The translations under genes and the position numbers were made by a program. Positions 5,410 through 11,279 of a DNA stretch of 11,279 bases are shown in pieces (within the stretch, counting starts at the first letter, position 1; each line of letters begins with the position of its first letter). The stretch is from the UHGV virus genome UHGV-0098134; one strand, written 5' to 3'. This DNA comes from a virus. The notes below the pieces were generated by a model, which ran no database searches, was not told the origin of the DNA, and was given only the letters and a program-made list of their open reading frames with translations.

Positions 5410-5769
5410 ATGAACACAAAAACACGCCCCTCAACGCTGCACTGGCAACCGGCCTTGCAGCGGCCTGAAGAATACGTCTGCGGGCTGGATGATATTCACC
5501 AGGCGATACACATCATTCTGCGCACACCGCGCGGCAGTGATCCTCACAGACCGCTGTTTGGCAGCAACTTGTGGCACTACATCGATTACCCCATCGAGCG
5601 GGCAATCCCGCATGTGGTACGGGAGTCGGTGGAAGCCATCCGCCAGTGGGAACCGCGCTGTCGGTTGCTGAAGGTGACACCAGTAATCGACGGTGAACAT
5701 CTGACGTTACGTGTGCAATGGCGCGCCGCTGACGGCGTTATCAACTCAACGGAGGTGTTATGGCGATAG
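5410..5769 (+). CDS. baseplate wedge protein W (GPW/gp25 family)
   Basis: 119-aa ORF of gp25/GPW size with a conserved-looking core (HQAIHIILRTPRGSDPHRPLFGSNLWHYID...AIRQWEPRCRL). The stop overlaps the downstream ATG, and GGAGG at 5751-5755 serves the next gene. Confidence 0.8.
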   Translation: MNTKTRPSTLHWQPALQRPEEYVCGLDDIHQAIHIILRTPRGSDPHRPLFGSNLWHYIDYPIERAIPHVVRESVEAIRQWEPRCRLLKVTPVIDGEHLTLRVQWRAADGVINSTEVLWR

Positions 5770-6868
5770 CCGAACCCAATTTTATTGACCGCGATCCTGC
5801 GCAAATTACCAGTGAGATGATTGCGCAATACGAAGATGCCAGTGGTAAAAAACTCTATCCGGCACAGGCTGAGCGGTTGCTCATCGACCTGTTTGCCTAT
5901 CGTGAAAACCTTGTACGCATCGCCATTCAGGAAGCGGCGAAACAAAACCTGGTCGCGTATTCCCGCGCGCCAATGCTGGATTATTTAGGGGAGTTGGTGG
6001 GAGTTCACCGTTTGCCTGCGCAGCCTGCAAAAACGACGTTGCAGTTTTCAGTGCGTATACCAGCAATATCCTGATTCCCCAGGGGACGCGGGCCAGTGCC
6101 TCTGATAGCGTGATGTTCGCCACCGATGAAGATGTTCTGCTTCCGGCCAGGAGTTTGCATATCGCCGTTCCTGCCACCAGCCTCGCAGCAGGTGAACAGG
6201 GCAACGGCTGGCAGCCTGCACAAATTAGCACACTGGTCGACAGGATTGGTCATTATGACATCAACGTAACCAACCTGACTGCGTCAACGGGCGGCTGCGG
6301 TGAAGAGAGCGATGACGCATTGCGCCAGCGTATCCAACTGGCACCAGAAAGCTTTAGTAATGCGGGCAGCTATGGCGCATACCGCTTTCATACGCTTTCT
6401 GTTAGCCAGTCGATTATTGACGTTGCAGTACTGGGGCCGGACGAGGGATTGCCAGAAGGCTGCGTGGAGATCTACCCGCTAACCCTGAACGGACTGCCAG
6501 GAATAGAACTGCTCGCGCAAATCGAACAGGAGGTTAGCAAGGAGAAAAAACGTCCGCTGACCGACAAAGTGAGTGCGAAATGCGCTCTTCGAGTGCCGTA
6601 TGAGATCCGTGCTCAGCTAACGCTGTTTACCACCGCCGATCAGGAGACAACGCTGGCTGCGGCGCGTAAAGCGATTAGCCTCTGGACGCAACAGCGGCAG
6701 AAACATCTGGGGCAGGACATTGTGCCAAACCAGATAATCAAAGTGTTACAGGTCGATGGCGTCTATGACGTTGCGCTGAATATGCCTACAAAACGTATTT
6801 TGCAGGCGCATGAATGGGCGGAATGCACTGCAATAGACGTCACGATTGCCGGAGTCAGCGATGGATAA
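5760..6868 (+). pseudogene. baseplate protein J (gpJ-like), interrupted by a frameshift
   Basis: The N-terminal 104 codons (5760-6074) end at TGA 6072-6074. The rest of the gpJ-like sequence continues in another frame, which is open from well upstream of 6000 through 6868 (ORF track starts it at GTG 6110). Frame 0 reads ...AKTTLQFSVRIPAIS*, and the other frame reads ...YTSNILIPQGTRASASDSVMFATDEDVLL... and later LRQRIQLAPESFSNAGSYGAYRFH, matching gpJ as recalled. A 1-nt deletion or 2-nt insertion near 6050-6068 is implied. Confidence 0.7.
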
Positions 6869-7577
6869 ATTGCTGCCACCGCCGCCGCTTGCCAGCGATG
6901 AGCGTTTTTCGATTCTGGCAAACATCGCCGCCGAGCGTTTTGCCCAACTCGATCTTACGGCGTTGATGGTTTATCTGGTCGACCTGGTTGATGCTTCGGC
7001 ATTACCAGCCCTTGCAGAACAATTTCACGTTCAGGGGCTGGAAGGTTGGTTATTTACCACCGATGAGCGGGAGAAACGCGAGTTAATTAAACAAGCCATT
7101 GAACTGCATAAATATAAAGGAACAATTTGGGCGGTACGGCGGGTGCTGGAAATACTTTCCTTACCCGGAACTATTTCAGAATGGTTTGAATATGGGGGAA
7201 GGGCTTATTTTTTTAAGGTAAATATTACACTAGAGGAAAAAGGATTAAATGAAGATGAATTCAATGCACTTATCACATTAATTCATGAATATAAAAATGT
7301 TCGTTCAAAGCTGGAAAGCATTGTTATTTGGCTTATTAATCGAAGCCCAATACCAGTTATTGGCAGCGCCATGCAAGGAGGGGAAGTCATTACAGTATTG
7401 CCTCCTGTTGCAGAAAGCCTCAGCCAGTCATCAGGAATATTTTTAGCGACGGGTTATTGTGTGGAGGAATATATTCAACTACTACCTTATCAACCCGATC
7501 GACTTACACAATCCCAACCGATGAAGGTCGGCACAGGATACTGGAGCACCGAAATTATGTCTGTATATCCGGAGTAA
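6861..7577 (+). CDS. baseplate/tail protein I (gpI-like)
   Basis: ORF with a gpI-like motif ([18 protein letters not shown], compare the P2 gpI core as recalled). Preferred start is ATG 6861 with GGAG at 6851-6854. The ORF track begins at TTG 6846. Overlaps the end of gpJ. Confidence 0.75.
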
Positions 7578-7579
7578 TA

Positions 7580-9160
7580 ATGGCAAGTGAATTTTTTACA
7601 ATATTAACTGCTGCTGGCAAAGCCAAAATTGCCTCAGCACTGGCCGAGCAAAAACAGATCCGTCTGCAAACTATGGTAGTTGGCGACGGTAATGGTAAAT
7701 ATATCGAACCGACAGAAAGTCAGACCAAAGTAGTCCATGAGGTCTGGCGTGGTCAGCTCAATACATTAAAAATTGCGCCAGATAATCCGGCCTGGGTTAT
7801 CGCAGAAGCGATTATTCCCGAACAAGTCGGAGGCTGGTATGTACGCGAAGTTGGGTTACTGGATACCGACGGCACGCTGGTCGCTATTGGTAAATTTCCG
7901 GAAACCTATAAGCCACGATTACCTGCGGGGGCCAGTAAGCAAATCGTTATACGCGCGGTCATGGAAGTCACCAATACAGACGCGGTGACGCTTTTGATCG
8001 ACCCTTCAGTCGTTGTGGCAACCAGGGAATATGTCGATGATGCGTTGAAAACACATCAGCAATCACGAAATCATCCTGATGCGACGCTGACACAAAAAGG
8101 TTTTACGCAGCTCAGTAATGCAACTAATAGCGATGATGAGACTAAAGCAGCCACGCCAAAAGCGGTAAAAACGGCATATGACCTGGCAAATAGCAAAGCC
8201 GCAACCAGTCATACTCATGCCTGGAATCAGATTACTGGTATCCCTGATGGTACACTGACGCAGAAAGGAGTCGTTAAACTTAACAACACAACAAATAGCA
8301 CCAGTACAACGGAAGCTGCAACGCCAAGTGCTGTTAAAGCAGCGATGGACAAGGCTATTGCTGCGGCACCGTCCAGCCATACCCATGCCTGGGGGCAAAT
8401 AACAGGTATCCCCGACGGTACGCTGACACAAAAAGGGGTCGTGAAACTTAATAATGCGACCAACAGCACCAGTACGACGGAAGCTGCAACGCCGAACGCG
8501 GTTAAGGCAGCGATGGATAAGGCTATTGCTGCGGAAAGCTGTCCTGTAGGGATGCCTATACCCTGGCCATCTGATTCTGTACCTTCAGGCTACGCTCTGA
8601 TGACTGGTCAGACATTTAATAAAACCTCCTATCCCAAACTGGCAATTGCATATCCATCTGGCGTTATTCCTGATATGCGCGGATGGATAATTAAAGGAAA
8701 ACCATCCAGTGGGCGCGCTATATTATCTACTGAACTGGATGGAGTTAAATCACATAACCATACGGGCAGTATTTCTAGTACCAATTTAGGGACAATAACA
8801 TCTACCTCTACGGACTTAGGAACAAAAACTACAGCTTCATTTAATCATGGAAGTAGAAATACAAGCACATCTGGAGAACATACACACCGAATACCAACTG
8901 ATGGTGCAGAAGGTAAAGATGGACCGTCTTTATGGAACAGCCCCAATTCAGATGAGAACTACAGAGAACCTACTGAGTCTGCTGGTAGTCATTATCATAG
9001 TATTACGATTGGCGCCCATGCACATACAATCGCACTGGGAAGTCATACACATAATATTGTGTTAGGTACACATAATCACTCAATTATCATCAATAACACT
9101 GGCAATACAGAAAATACTGTTAAAAACATTGCATTCAATTATATTGTGAGGCTTGCATGA
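7580..9160 (+). CDS. tail fibre protein (P2 gpH/Mu S-like N-terminus, lambda Stf-like C-terminal tip)
   Basis: The N-terminus [18 protein letters not shown]...VGDGNG...EVWRG is the conserved baseplate-attachment domain of P2/Mu-type fibres. The middle carries phage tail-fibre repeats (TLTQKG..L.NATNS...AATP.AVK). The C-terminus (PIPWPSD.VPSGY.LM.GQ.F.K..YPKLA.AYPSG..PDMRGW.IKGKP...HxH...[18 protein letters not shown]) closely matches the lambda Stf C-terminus as recalled. Start chosen at ATG 7580 (GGAG at 7571-7574), while the ORF track extends in frame to 7457 inside gpI. Confidence 0.9.
8210..8545 (+). repeat. in-frame tandem duplication (2 x 168 bp) of the tail-fibre repeat unit
   Basis: Two consecutive 56-codon units, both beginning CAT AC[T/C] CAT GCC TGG (8210 and 8378). 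They encode nearly identical peptides (HTHAW[N/G][20 protein letters not shown][T/A][12 protein letters not shown][S/N][12 protein letters not shown]..) but differ at many synonymous sites. A more diverged third copy lies upstream at about 8078-8209. Confidence 0.75.
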
Positions 9161-9864
9161 ATACTTTTACTTTTTCCGATAACGCACAAATTTTATCTGT
9201 TTTTAATTTTTCACCAGACACACAAGAATTTATTGGTGAGTCCAATGTATATATAGCACCAAACACTGGACTACCGAATTACTGCACATTAACACCACCA
9301 CCACAAAAAATTGCAGGTTTTACTTCTATATGGTCAATTAATAAATGGGAACTTATTGAAGATCATCGAGGCCAAACTGTTTATAACAAAGTTGATGGCA
9401 GCCAGATTATTATTAATAAATTGGGTCAATTGCCTGAAACTGTCACCATCATTTCCCCTACCAGTACTTTTGAGCGTTGGGATGGCGAAAAATGGCAGCC
9501 ATCAATTGATGATGCTAAACAGGCGAAATGTGCCGAAATCAAAACATTGCGCGACTCCATCACTACCGACTACATCATCATCAACGACAATTACTTCCAC
9601 AGTGATACAAGCAGCCGCATCCAACAACTCTCACTCACAAAAATGGGAGCGGAGAAAAAAATTCCGCCAGGTTTAATGTGGAAAACTAAAAATAATGGTC
9701 TGACTGAGTTAACCAACGAAATCGCTGCCCAGTTTGAATCCGTCACAATGGATCACGATATACGCTTGTTTGCCAACGCCCAACGCCATATCGCGGCGGT
9801 GGAAGCTCTGGACGATATTCAGTCGGTACTCGACTACGATTATTCAACAGGCTGGCAACCATGA
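9157..9864 (+). CDS. tail fibre assembly chaperone (Tfa; lambda Tfa-like N-terminal domain)
   Basis: 235-aa ORF. The N-terminal region ([17 protein letters not shown]...[11 protein letters not shown]) matches the conserved Tfa N-terminal domain as recalled from lambda Tfa (FIGEGDAYIPPHTGLP...LVEDHRGKTVY). ATG 9157 overlaps the fibre stop (ATGA). Confidence 0.85.
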
Positions 9865-10316
9865 GTAAAACTACAGTCTGGCTCGCTTGCTATAAAGGGC
9901 GAACAGAGCACCGGGTTATTGCGAGACTGGCTGACTGGCTTACACGCAAAATCACTCGCGGCAGTTATTCCCACTGTGAATTAGCCGTAGCACATGGAGA
10001 AAAGAGTTACCTTTGTTACTCCGCCTCTCTGCGCGATCGAGGCGTTCGTGGAAAGATAATGCCTTTACCGCCAGACAAGTGGGATATGCTGCCGCTCCAG
10101 GTCAGCCTTCAGGATGTAGAAGCGTTTTTCCGTAAACATGATGGCAAAAAATACGACTGGCGTGGAGCCTTAGGAATTATCACCGGCAATAAAGAACAGC
10201 GCGATCGCCTGTTTTGTAGCGAATTTTGTGCCGAATTTCTGCAATTAAAAGAAAGTTGGCGCTATTCCCCAAACCACTTGTACGCTTTAGTTAACAGTTG
10301 GCAATATCAACCATAA
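9861..10316 (+). CDS. hypothetical protein; possible permuted papain-like (LRAT/NlpC-P60-type) Cys/His enzyme
   Basis: 151-aa ORF translationally coupled to Tfa (ATGA overlap at 9861-9864), with host-like GC. The motifs GSYSHCELAVAHG (His) and, about 80 residues later, LFCSEFCAEF (Cys) resemble the YxHWAxY ... NCEHF arrangement of LRAT-like thiol acyltransferases/hydrolases. The family assignment is tentative. Confidence 0.55.
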   Translation: MSKTTVWLACYKGRTEHRVIARLADWLTRKITRGSYSHCELAVAHGEKSYLCYSASLRDRGVRGKIMPLPPDKWDMLPLQVSLQDVEAFFRKHDGKKYDWRGALGIITGNKEQRDRLFCSEFCAEFLQLKESWRYSPNHLYALVNSWQYQP

Positions 10317-10321
10317 ACTAC

Positions 10322-10346
10322 GCCGGGCTTCAAGCCCGGCTTTAAT
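10322..10346 (+). terminator. putative intrinsic terminator after the tail-fibre operon
   Basis: GC-rich perfect inverted repeat GCCGGGC (10322-10328) / GCCCGGC (10334-10340) with loop TTCAA, followed by TTTAAT. The U-tract is short, so it is marginal. Starts 6 nt after the TAA of the 151-aa ORF. Confidence 0.45.
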
Positions 10347-10460
10347 CAGGCTGTATATTCCATCACAAACAAAGCACATGATTATAAATATTCACAGTAA
10401 TTATATTTCCATATTAACCATCCACTGAGTGAATATAGAAGAATTTAAATACAATAACTA

Positions 10461-10488
10461 TTGCATTGTAAATTACATCAAATATAGT
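10461..10488 (+). promoter_or_regulatory. candidate sigma70-type promoter for the downstream low-GC gene
   Basis: TTGCAT (10461-10466), a 16-bp spacer, then TATAGT (10483-10488), about 40 nt upstream of ATG 10530 with AGGGA as a possible RBS. The region is very AT-rich, so chance matches are likely. Confidence 0.3.
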
Positions 10489-10529
10489 TCACTACTTATA
10501 TATTTTGCTAATCGCTACAGGGAAATTAC

Positions 10530-11258
10530 ATGTTTATTGTCTCAGTTCTCAGACAAAGTAAGGATTTCACTATTAAACATGCACAATGGCTTCACCAGCA
10601 GCTGGATGGGTATAATTCCATTTGCATGACGGATGCTTCAGAAATCAAAGGGGTTCAAACCACTCCATTACTGTATAATTGGCCAGGATGGTGGGCAAAA
10701 TTAGAGCTATTTAATCCCGAACATCCTGTTATCGGGAATGAAGATATACTTTATATTGATATTGATACTGTAATCGTCGGTGATATTACACAGTTTACTA
10801 AAATGAAAAAAGTAACATTACTGAACGACTTCTCGCAGCATGGTTCCAATGCTGCTCCTGCGACTGGAATAATGTTCATTCCTGCGGACGCCAAAAAACT
10901 TGTCTGGGAAGAGTTTATGAGATCGCCTGAAACTGAAATAAATTCAACCAGAAAGCCGCCATATCATGGGGATCAGGGATTTATCGGCAGAGTATGTCAT
11001 GACGCTGAAAGATGGCAGGATATTTTTCCAGGACAAATTATCAGTTACAAAGCGAATATAGCGACGCCTAAAATGATAGGCTTTAATCCTGACTTACACG
11101 ATGGTAAAGCAAACGGAGAATTGCCATCGGATGCAAAAATTGTATGTTTTCACGGTTCACCTCGTCCCTGGAACACAGCTCTCCACTGGGTTCCAGGTTT
11201 CAGCATAAAAAACACACTCTGCAGCAAATTTAAACAGCTCAAATATTCTCTTCGGTAA
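10530..11258 (+). CDS. putative nucleotide-sugar glycosyltransferase (GT-A fold, GT8-like motifs); low-GC cargo/moron gene
   Basis: 242-aa ORF with clearly lower GC than the tail genes. Motifs line up with GT8 enzymes such as LgtC and glycogenin as recalled: WAKLELF...EDILYIDIDTVIVGDI (hydrophobic strand plus DxD), GDQGFIG (compare QDQDILN), and C-terminal KIVCFHGSPRPW (compare HxxGxxKPW). Separated from the tail operon by a terminator and an AT-rich promoter-like region. Confidence 0.5.
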   Translation: MFIVSVLRQSKDFTIKHAQWLHQQLDGYNSICMTDASEIKGVQTTPLLYNWPGWWAKLELFNPEHPVIGNEDILYIDIDTVIVGDITQFTKMKKVTLLNDFSQHGSNAAPATGIMFIPADAKKLVWEEFMRSPETEINSTRKPPYHGDQGFIGRVCHDAERWQDIFPGQIISYKANIATPKMIGFNPDLHDGKANGELPSDAKIVCFHGSPRPWNTALHWVPGFSIKNTLCSKFKQLKYSLR

Positions 11259-11279
11259 AAAACTTTTTTATTGGAAGGG

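Follow-up and report, generated by a model that had tools for sequence, protein, structure and literature searches.

Genes and features downstream of the tail fiber gene

The stretch analyzed here, hereafter the window, is the whole 11,279-nt sequence of the viral genome UHGV-0098134. Its Pfam and phrog matches identify it as a contractile-tail gene cluster, with the genes in the order tape measure, gpU-like, X, D, V, W, J (split), I, fiber, chaperone, ORF1 and ORF2, where ORF1 and ORF2 denote the two open reading frames (ORFs) following the fiber chaperone gene. A preliminary description, made from the letters of the window, took these two ORFs as a cargo unit at the distal end of a P2-type tail, encoding a thiol enzyme and a glycosyltransferase that might act together on the cell envelope. 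We found instead that they constitute two independent units, namely a thiol enzyme coupled to the fiber chaperone and an autonomous GT8-like glycosyltransferase cassette tied to the type of the fiber tip; this division is well supported. The features that the argument needs are the following.

7580..9160, + strand: tail fiber gene, 526 amino acids (aa); Pfam Phage_tail_fib, Phage_fiber_2 and Collar
about 8570-9157, + strand: fiber tip (C-terminal, receptor-binding), T4 gp37-like, with HxH repeats
9157..9864, + strand: fiber assembly protein (chaperone); Pfam DUF4376 (E = 4e-13) and Caudo_TAP; phrog_1807, phrog_105 and phrog_2837
9861..10316, + strand: ORF1, 151 aa, putative thiol enzyme, permuted papain-like (YaeF/YiiX-type NlpC/P60)
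10322..10340, no strand assigned: GC-rich hairpin GCCGGGCTTcaAGCCCGGC, terminator-like (-16.7 kcal/mol, z = -4.3)
10461..10488, + strand: candidate sigma-70-like promoter for ORF2, with TTGCAT at 10461-10466, a 16-nt spacer and TATAGT at 10483-10488
10520-10523, + strand: ribosome-binding site GGGA of ORF2
10530..11258, + strand: ORF2, 242 aa, soluble GT-A glycosyltransferase, GT8-like; phrog_1962, family of P1 PmgQ and P7 HdmD

Both ORFs are real genes, as had been proposed. ORF1 has 82 database relatives (best E = 1e-96) and ORF2 has 92 (best E = 3e-156), and the ratios of nonsynonymous to synonymous substitution rates, 0.03 for ORF1 against the E. coli copies and 0.05-0.06 for ORF2 against the Salmonella-like copies, point to strong purifying selection on both. 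The noted difference in guanine-plus-cytosine (GC) content was also found (47.1% for ORF1 and 40.5% for ORF2); yet the fiber tip and the chaperone gene likewise have about 41%, so the low GC content of ORF2 is nothing special. When the single sequences of ORF1 and ORF2 were compared with PDB, Pfam, NCBIfam and the defense models of PADLOC-DB 2.0, no match was obtained, in line with the earlier remark that no known defense signature is visible. The two families were resolved solely by profiles and predicted structures, and the folds and motifs obtained in this way agree with both of the enzyme classes that had been guessed.

ORF1 and the fiber chaperone

The residues Y36-S-H38-C-E40, S56, R63, K65, W74, Y98, C119-S120 and P137 are invariant in the family alignment of ORF1. 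In the predicted structure (predicted local distance difference test score, pLDDT, 85.5), His38 lies at the start of a strand and Cys119 at the start of a helix, which gives a papain-like fold that is circularly permuted, the His coming before the Cys. The top structural neighbors are papain-like, with TseH, PLAAT and RID in the list, and the ORF1 profile matches 3kw0 at E = 8.7e-4, with the SH and (F/I)CSEF segments aligned. ORF1 is thus modeled as a permuted NlpC/P60 (YaeF/YiiX, Peptidase C92-like) thiol enzyme with a putative activity. It shares with YaeF/YiiX (PDB 2if6, 3kw0) and with the LRAT/PLAAT branch the order of His before Cys, the Cys at a helix N-terminus in F-C-S-E, and the His at a strand start. 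Unlike YaeF/YiiX, it has no Pfam match, carries the additional invariant residues Cys39, Arg63 and Lys65, and is a putatively cytoplasmic protein coupled to a fiber chaperone. The annotation "enoyl-CoA hydratase" that the family bears (phrog_1128, SuMu_51) was rejected: no Pfam or NCBIfam match was obtained, and no crotonase fold occurs among the listed structural neighbors. This label is an inherited misannotation.

A close connection is seen between ORF1 and the gene upstream of it. In the window, the ATG of ORF1 overlaps the stop codon of the chaperone gene (ATGA). Relatives of ORF1 were found in at least 539 viral contigs of IMG/VR, and in all of the 79 viral loci with upstream DNA (79/79), an ORF on the same strand, mostly of 150-260 aa, ends near the ORF1 start; the gap amounts to a few bases in most of these loci and is often a 4-nt overlap. 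A match to phrog_2837 (tail) was seen for 53 of 65 upstream neighbors, and one to DUF4376 for 37 of them. SuMu carries its ORF1 homologue directly after the chaperone gene, the Pasteurella and Moraxella phages carry theirs inside the tail genes, and in a contig with P2 order (L048) it occupies the Z/fun position between the chaperone gene and the sheath gene.

The comparison among cluster relatives leads to the same view. All close relatives examined keep ORF1 at 72-96% identity, even where the fiber tip is different. A domain-wise comparison of 8570-9500 with loci L024-L044 revealed that the N-terminal, Caudo_TAP-like domain of the chaperone is swapped jointly with the fiber tip, while the C-terminal DUF4376 domain and ORF1 stay conserved. 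The ATGA overlap, the coupling in 79 of 79 loci and the conservation together with DUF4376 indicate that ORF1 belongs to the tail operon. Judged from these gene neighborhoods, ORF1 is a conserved accessory of the DUF4376-type chaperone module, translated with the chaperone, and not free cargo; the supposed two-gene cargo unit therefore dissolves, and ORF1 comes near to the conserved structural gene that the preliminary description had named as its own refutation, a location in the virion aside. The swap pattern itself, in which the N-terminal half is exchanged and the DUF4376 half is kept, is the opposite of the customary conserved chaperone N-domain.

ORF1 would act in the cytoplasm during fiber assembly, at a step tied to the DUF4376 chaperone, possibly as a thiol hydrolase or acyltransferase whose target is the complex of fiber and chaperone or a co-substrate of lipid or peptide nature. 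The ORF1 homologue of SuMu goes unmentioned in the main text of the proteomics paper on that phage. Since ORF1 falls in the NlpC/P60 superfamily and its gene lies inside a tail operon, it might alternatively be a peptidoglycan amidase or endopeptidase, carried by the tail or freed at lysis, that aids wall penetration or lysis. We consider this quite unlikely: ORF1 has only 151 aa, no signal peptide or membrane segment is evident by eye, and there is no tail-attachment domain; its closest relatives belong to the permuted YaeF/YiiX and LRAT branch and not to the wall-hydrolase branches; and the element already encodes an SLT lysin.

ORF2 and its glycosyltransferase family

ORF2 has a GT-A fold (Rossmann-like, nucleotide-sugar) that is closest to the solved GT8 enzymes. 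Three motifs characterize the family. First, D77 and D79 (the DxD motif, the putative site of metal binding) are invariant in 34 sequences and align with the DxD of glycogenin and of Skp1 galactosyltransferase (Skp1 GalT). Second, F207-H208-G209-x-P211-R212-P213-W is nearly invariant and aligns to HFLGSMKPW of glycogenin, so that the C-terminal His motif of the type H-x-x-G-x-x-K-P-W is present. Third, the family has the signature WPGWW(A/S)K, whose Lys is aligned with the "TKL" segment of glycogenin. The family profile reaches GT8 structures at E = 5e-8; at E = 0.1, ORF2 itself matches no family of Pfam or NCBIfam, Pfam Glyco_transf_8 included. Because a match to a curated model is absent, we call ORF2 GT8-like and not a curated GT8 member. 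It is probably a retaining hexosyltransferase. The last 18 residues are basic; an amphipathic C-terminal membrane helix was sought, and since it is not among the top hydrophobic moments, it is not used as evidence.

When compared with the GT8 enzymes (LgtC, WaaI/WaaJ/WaaO, glycogenin, Skp1 alpha-galactosyltransferase), ORF2 shares the GT-A fold, the DxD, the Lys following WPGWW and the H-x-G-x-(K/R)-P-W motif, but it differs in its low identity (about 15%), its own WPGWW(A/S)K signature and its location on phage or tailocin-like elements instead of the waa cluster.

The family is present in at least 566 viral contigs and has no Pfam model. P1 PmgQ and P7 HdmD are homologous to ORF2 (36% identity over 93% of the length). 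In P1, pmgQ is the last gene of the operon pmgO, pmgP, ppp, pmgQ, which has late and C1-repressed promoters, whereas ORF2 is a lone cassette beside fiber genes. pmgO is a sialyltransferase/Maf-like gene, and the pairing of such a gene with a PmgQ-type glycosyltransferase is seen both in P1 (L017, 79592-82150) and in Citrobacter phage phiNP (L013, 5463-7300), an arrangement suggesting a multi-enzyme glycan pathway in those phages. ORF2 relatives usually occur without ORF1. One orphan relative lies on the Shimwellia chromosome, and another lies beside a P4-like primase.

Boundaries of the ORF2 cassette

The spacer between ORF1 and ORF2 has 213 bp and a GC content of 31.5%. The terminator that had been read between the genes is found there as a hairpin at 10322-10340, but on the + strand it is trailed only by UUUAAU, and a terminator scan called the - strand only. 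A second copy of the hairpin, with the pattern GCCGGGC-N-GCCCGGC, lies just past the window end (10751-10770 in the E. fergusonii-type locus L006). In the E. fergusonii-type loci, the ORF2 cassette is accordingly flanked by the hairpin on both sides (two copies in L006). In the E. coli cluster, the hairpin is present once, ORF2 is absent, and ORF1 is followed directly by the RlaP end. Through these repeats, the cassette could be gained or lost.

The promoter-like region also came out in part as described. A consensus promoter scan of 10341-10529 called none, and the -35 hexamer of the TTGCAT element matches at only 3 of 6 positions; nevertheless, the promoter-like block (TTGCAT-N16-TATAGT) is kept in three diverged lineages, namely the window, a remnant in locus L030 and the Salmonella-like locus L037, while its flanks have diverged. 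From these boundaries, ORF2 is read as a separate single-gene cassette with its own promoter-like element. The absence of ORF2 from E. coli would suggest that the gene was inserted recently into a cluster of the E. coli kind, but the 77% identical copy in Salmonella-like clusters, the 5' remnant in L030 and the hairpins on both sides speak against this; loss or replacement is at least as likely as gain.

The adjacency of ORF1 and ORF2, the lack of a PADLOC match for both enzymes and the ability of NlpC/P60-superfamily enzymes to act on peptidoglycan or lipids (TseH, PLAAT and RID are among the neighbors of ORF1) would fit the proposal that the two form one two-enzyme cargo module, which jointly remodels an envelope receptor or excludes phages. 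The gene structure argues otherwise: ORF1 is translated together with the chaperone, while a hairpin and 213 bp separate ORF2. In 196 E. coli genomes, as in the SuMu, Pasteurella and Moraxella phages, ORF1 is present and ORF2 absent, and ORF2 relatives in turn occur without ORF1. Direct action of ORF1 on the envelope is unlikely as well, given that no signal peptide or membrane segment was noticed by eye. Nothing indicates joint action, and the module is already largely refuted by the gene distribution; we regard it as very improbable.

The slot downstream of the fiber operon

The slot after the fiber operon varies among the relatives: it is empty or holds a GT8-like gene, a GT4 gene of the lipopolysaccharide (LPS) N-acetylglucosamine (GlcNAc)-transferase type, an LbH acetyltransferase gene, a Dam methylase gene, a second fiber gene or the sheath gene. 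The Salmonella-like clusters have the order chaperone, ORF1, hexapeptide (WcaB/CysE-like) acetyltransferase and ORF2 homologue (77% identity). In L030, the promoter block and the first codons of ORF2 remain, and the body is replaced by a 380-aa GT4, which scores 701.7 bits against the cut-off of 618 on NCBIfam NF012028, "LPS N-acetylglucosaminyltransferase"; several E. fergusonii-type genomes have a copy of this GT4, 84% identical, just past yjbD. More distant relatives carry the Dam methylase, second fiber or sheath gene, and RlaP and Aca2-like genes were also found in the slot. The notion of a distal cargo site thus applies to ORF2, at the variable end of the fiber operon, and not to ORF1.

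Co-occurrence of ORF2 relatives with a gp37-like fiber tip

The fiber tip of the window is 55.6% identical to T4 gp37 and 56-61% identical to the fibers of Chlobot, P1-like phages, phiNP and Chuche. A search of 50,697 phage records gave as the best tip matches Chlobot, two P1-like phages, phiNP and Chuche, all of which carry ORF2 homologues, and local searches found a 51-93% identical tip beside the glycosyltransferase in six loci. In phiNP and the P1-like phages, the tip and glycosyltransferase genes are far apart, which means that the co-occurrence goes beyond mere adjacency. Altogether, enterobacterial ORF2 relatives and gp37-like tips co-occur across about six phage backbones.

The enterobacterial relatives of ORF2 (>50% identity) adjoin fiber or chaperone genes in unrelated backbones (Mu-like, lambda-like and others). 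In the lambda-like Chlobot, the relative lies between the fiber chaperone gene and the integrase gene; in Chuche, whose genome is P2-sized, it lies at the genome end; and in Citrobacter and Klebsiella prophages, relatives are next to fiber/chaperone genes. A Salmonella Mu-like prophage (L184, 4941-9540) has a glycosyltransferase and a hexapeptide acetyltransferase between two oppositely arranged fiber/chaperone cassettes, so these two genes may lie inside a fiber-switching segment.

The ends of fiber operons and prophages are insertion hotspots, and ORF2 might accordingly be a hitch-hiking accessory whose acceptor is unrelated, for example a host protein, a capsule precursor or a small molecule. 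The unrelated slot genes of other relatives (Dam methylase, RlaP, Aca2-like), the orphan Shimwellia copy, the copy beside the P4-like primase and the loose tracking of the tip type by ORF2 would all be understandable in this way. A hotspot alone, however, hardly explains the co-occurrence with gp37-like tips over about six backbones, non-adjacent cases included, and the neighboring and replacing genes encode surface-polysaccharide-type enzymes. We consider this explanation unlikely.

A tail-only element between lysC and yjbD

The record CP058057.1 matches the window at 99.9% identity, and CU928158.2, which we take to be Escherichia fergusonii ATCC 35469, carries the same locus. In E. coli and E. 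fergusonii-type genomes, the gene maps place the cluster between lysC and yjbD, and the same lysC-yjbD locus is present in E. albertii. The cluster was found in 196 of 5426 complete E. coli genomes. Downstream of lysC, the 5' part of the element comprises a Mor-type activator, a holin, an SLT lysin, a small membrane protein, Gp37, sheath, tube, a chaperone and the tape measure; the full order is lysC | Mor, holin, SLT, Gp37, sheath, tube, tape measure, U, X, D, V, W, J, I, fiber, chaperone, ORF1, [ORF2], RlaP, slipin | yjbD, where the RlaP nucleotidyltransferase and slipin genes are convergent at the distal end, before yjbD. Two further features of the window are used below.

50-2410: tape measure gene
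5760-6868: baseplate J gene, in two ORFs, with a break near 6054

Neither capsid, portal, terminase, integrase nor replication genes occur in the element in the gene maps of the E. coli and E. fergusonii-type loci. The P2-type tail or prophage that had been assumed is therefore not borne out: the gene order is BcepMu/Mu-like, and the analogy to P2 is only positional, in that the slot lies right after the fiber assembly gene as the Z/fun slot does. ORF1 is conserved with the chaperone here and the element does not have P2 gene order, which sets the locus apart from the Z/fun slot.

As only regulator, lysis and tail genes are present, we read the element as R-type tailocin-like; it has a contractile tail, a lysis cassette and a regulator and lacks head, integration and replication genes, so that with its Mu/BcepMu-like order it looks like an R-type tailocin in gene content. 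It resembles the named R-type tailocins (R-pyocins, carotovoricin, BceTMilo, Pseudomonas syringae tailocin) in having a fixed chromosomal site, a regulator, a lysis cassette and a full contractile tail without head or replication genes. It differs from them in that J is frameshifted in the window. A 7-nt deletion near 6054 breaks the J frame, while CP058057.1 and CU928158.2 have an intact J of 371 aa; the tail machine may be inactive in the window strain, or the break may be a sequencing error. In the literature searched, we found no specific description of a lysC-yjbD tail-only locus or of a tailocin-linked glycosyltransferase. The "tailocin" of ST131 (PMC9205054) is a different element, a P2-like intact prophage. 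A megablast search with 9100-11279 against the phage collection gave no match.

Possible role of ORF2

For ORF2, we tentatively favor receptor masking through modification of LPS or another surface glycan, a reading to which we give slightly less than an even chance. ORF2 would be expressed from its own promoter-like element, independently of the late tail operon, and the enzyme would work at the inner membrane, on its cytoplasmic face, where it would attach a sugar to the LPS core or to a different lipid-linked glycan of the surface. The added sugar would mask the receptor seen by the gp37-like tip, and the masking would protect producer kin or lysogens against the same tailocin or phage; the reality of the genes, the folds, motifs, gene coupling, cassette boundaries and tip co-occurrence described above are results of the analysis, and we infer the donor, the acceptor, the expression timing and the protective effect in this scheme. 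Four points favor the reading: the promoter-like element together with the orientation convergent to fiber genes in other hosts, the LPS/exopolysaccharide-type enzymes that replace or accompany ORF2, the improbability of head- or DNA-related roles in a tail-only element, and the known position of receptor-masking genes next to receptor-binding genes. The envelope modification suggested earlier is thus kept as the best reading for ORF2, with no sign that ORF1 takes part in it. Glycosylation of DNA or of the capsid by ORF2 is unlikely in this element, since it is tail-only, with no capsid and no packaged DNA.

Several observations weigh against receptor masking. The relation to the tip has exceptions: ORF2 is missing from E. 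coli clusters whose tip is 64-70% identical and present in Salmonella-like clusters with a different tip, and a Klebsiella locus has another fiber beside the ORF2 relative. Fiber-operon ends attract insertions in general. Unlike the classical phage enzymes of O-antigen conversion, which are membrane proteins, ORF2 is soluble. The closest structure and profile matches of ORF2 include protein-glycosylating Skp1 GalT, glycogenin and GlyE as much as LgtC or WbbM. Distant relatives (30-40% identity; environmental IMG/VR contigs L110-L183) are found within head modules, ahead of genes for connector or head-completion proteins, with FkbM and other methyltransferases, MptE/Maf-like proteins, sulfotransferases and GT25 as neighbors, and this placement suggests glycosylation of the virion. 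Finally, the P1 homologue lies in a late, C1-repressed operon and so is not, in P1, a conversion gene expressed in the lysogen, and it is dispensable for plaque formation (PMC10695390).

Some of these observations would be accounted for if ORF2 glycosylates the tail fiber or another tail protein, with the gene lying beside its substrate, as is the case for glycosyltransferase genes of phages whose virions are glycosylated, and with ORF1 and the Salmonella-like acetyltransferase as further fiber-decorating enzymes. The protein-glycosylating top matches (Skp1 alpha-GalT, glycogenin, GlyE), the position of distant relatives between capsid and connector genes beside sugar methyltransferases and sulfotransferases, and the location of the P1 homologue in a late "putative morphogenetic" operon with a sialyltransferase/Maf-like gene are in keeping with this idea, and so is the co-occurrence of the family with one fiber-tip type. 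On the other hand, for T4 and several hundred phages of the collection that have this tip type, a search at E = 1e-3 showed no homologue of ORF2; the tip thus does not need the enzyme for folding. Furthermore, a hairpin precedes ORF2, which also has a conserved sigma-70-like element of its own; its relatives are convergent to fiber genes in other enterobacterial phages, which is atypical for a late morphogenetic gene; and an LPS-core-type GlcNAc transferase occupies the slot in L030. Fiber glycosylation is the principal alternative to receptor masking, and we hold it to be possible though not probable.

Relation to known receptor-masking genes and implications

The genes gtrABC and oac of serotype-converting phages, llp of T5 and cor of T1/phi80-type phages are receptor-masking genes beside the gene for the receptor-binding protein. 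Gtr and Oac are membrane or periplasmic proteins, and the others are lipoproteins that block an outer-membrane protein. ORF2 is similar to these in being an accessory gene next to a receptor-binding gene, a position that would suit a product by which the carrier cell resists adsorption of the same specificity, but it would encode a soluble cytoplasmic GT-A enzyme; it is not of the gtrABC/oac type, having a single soluble GT-A domain and no match to the Pfam families concerned. The principle of placing a surface-modifying gene beside a receptor-binding gene is known, and what would be new is the enzyme type, the link to the gp37-like tip and the tailocin setting.

Avoidance of self-killing by tailocin producers and their kin is usually ascribed to the general LPS make-up, and to our knowledge, no dedicated immunity gene has been described for R-type tailocins. 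ORF2 would be a candidate for such a gene and, if receptor masking holds, the first one linked to an R-type tailocin. A fiber-linked sugar-transferase gene would then give a testable genetic basis for kin protection: the matching shield would be gained along with the weapon, be this a tailocin or a temperate phage. This would also be relevant to the engineering of tailocins and phages with gp37-like tips. The broadest claim is that ORF2 and its enterobacterial relatives form a new class of receptor-masking self-immunity determinants (soluble GT8-like LPS-core decorators, mobile with the gp37-like tip and its chaperone) and that, in parallel, ORF1 is a new catalytic partner of DUF4376 chaperones needed for fiber maturation; taken as a whole, it is conceivable but rather unlikely. 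No function for the ORF2 family (P1 PmgQ included) or the ORF1 family was found in the annotations and literature covered. The strict coupling of ORF1 to the DUF4376 chaperone points to an unknown enzymatic step in fiber assembly, and the analysis also brings to notice the lysC-yjbD tailocin-like locus common to E. coli, E. fergusonii-type genomes and E. albertii.

Other observations in and around the element

The convergent RlaP/slipin pair just past the window end (L006, 10759-12683) is kept in the E. coli and E. fergusonii-type clusters. The RlaP, slipin, GT4, LbH and zeta-toxin neighbor proteins gave no match in PADLOC-DB 2.0; the pair could be a defense or membrane-stress pair of an uncharacterized type. 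At the opposite end of the element, with lysC on one side and the Mor activator on the other, some E. fergusonii-type genomes have a PezT/zeta-toxin-like gene (L022, 1174-2103; L023, 1160-2089). Beyond yjbD, the region 13486-16950 of L006 (also L004, L005 and L007) contains a truncated rluF, a 380-aa GT4 passing NF012028, a second partial yjbD and an intact rluF, and it resembles a scar left by a second cluster end, one bearing the GT4 of the L030 slot. Within the window, the GC content falls to 36-37% over 7050-7500, the end of gene I and the start of the fiber gene, which hints at a recombination boundary of the fiber module.

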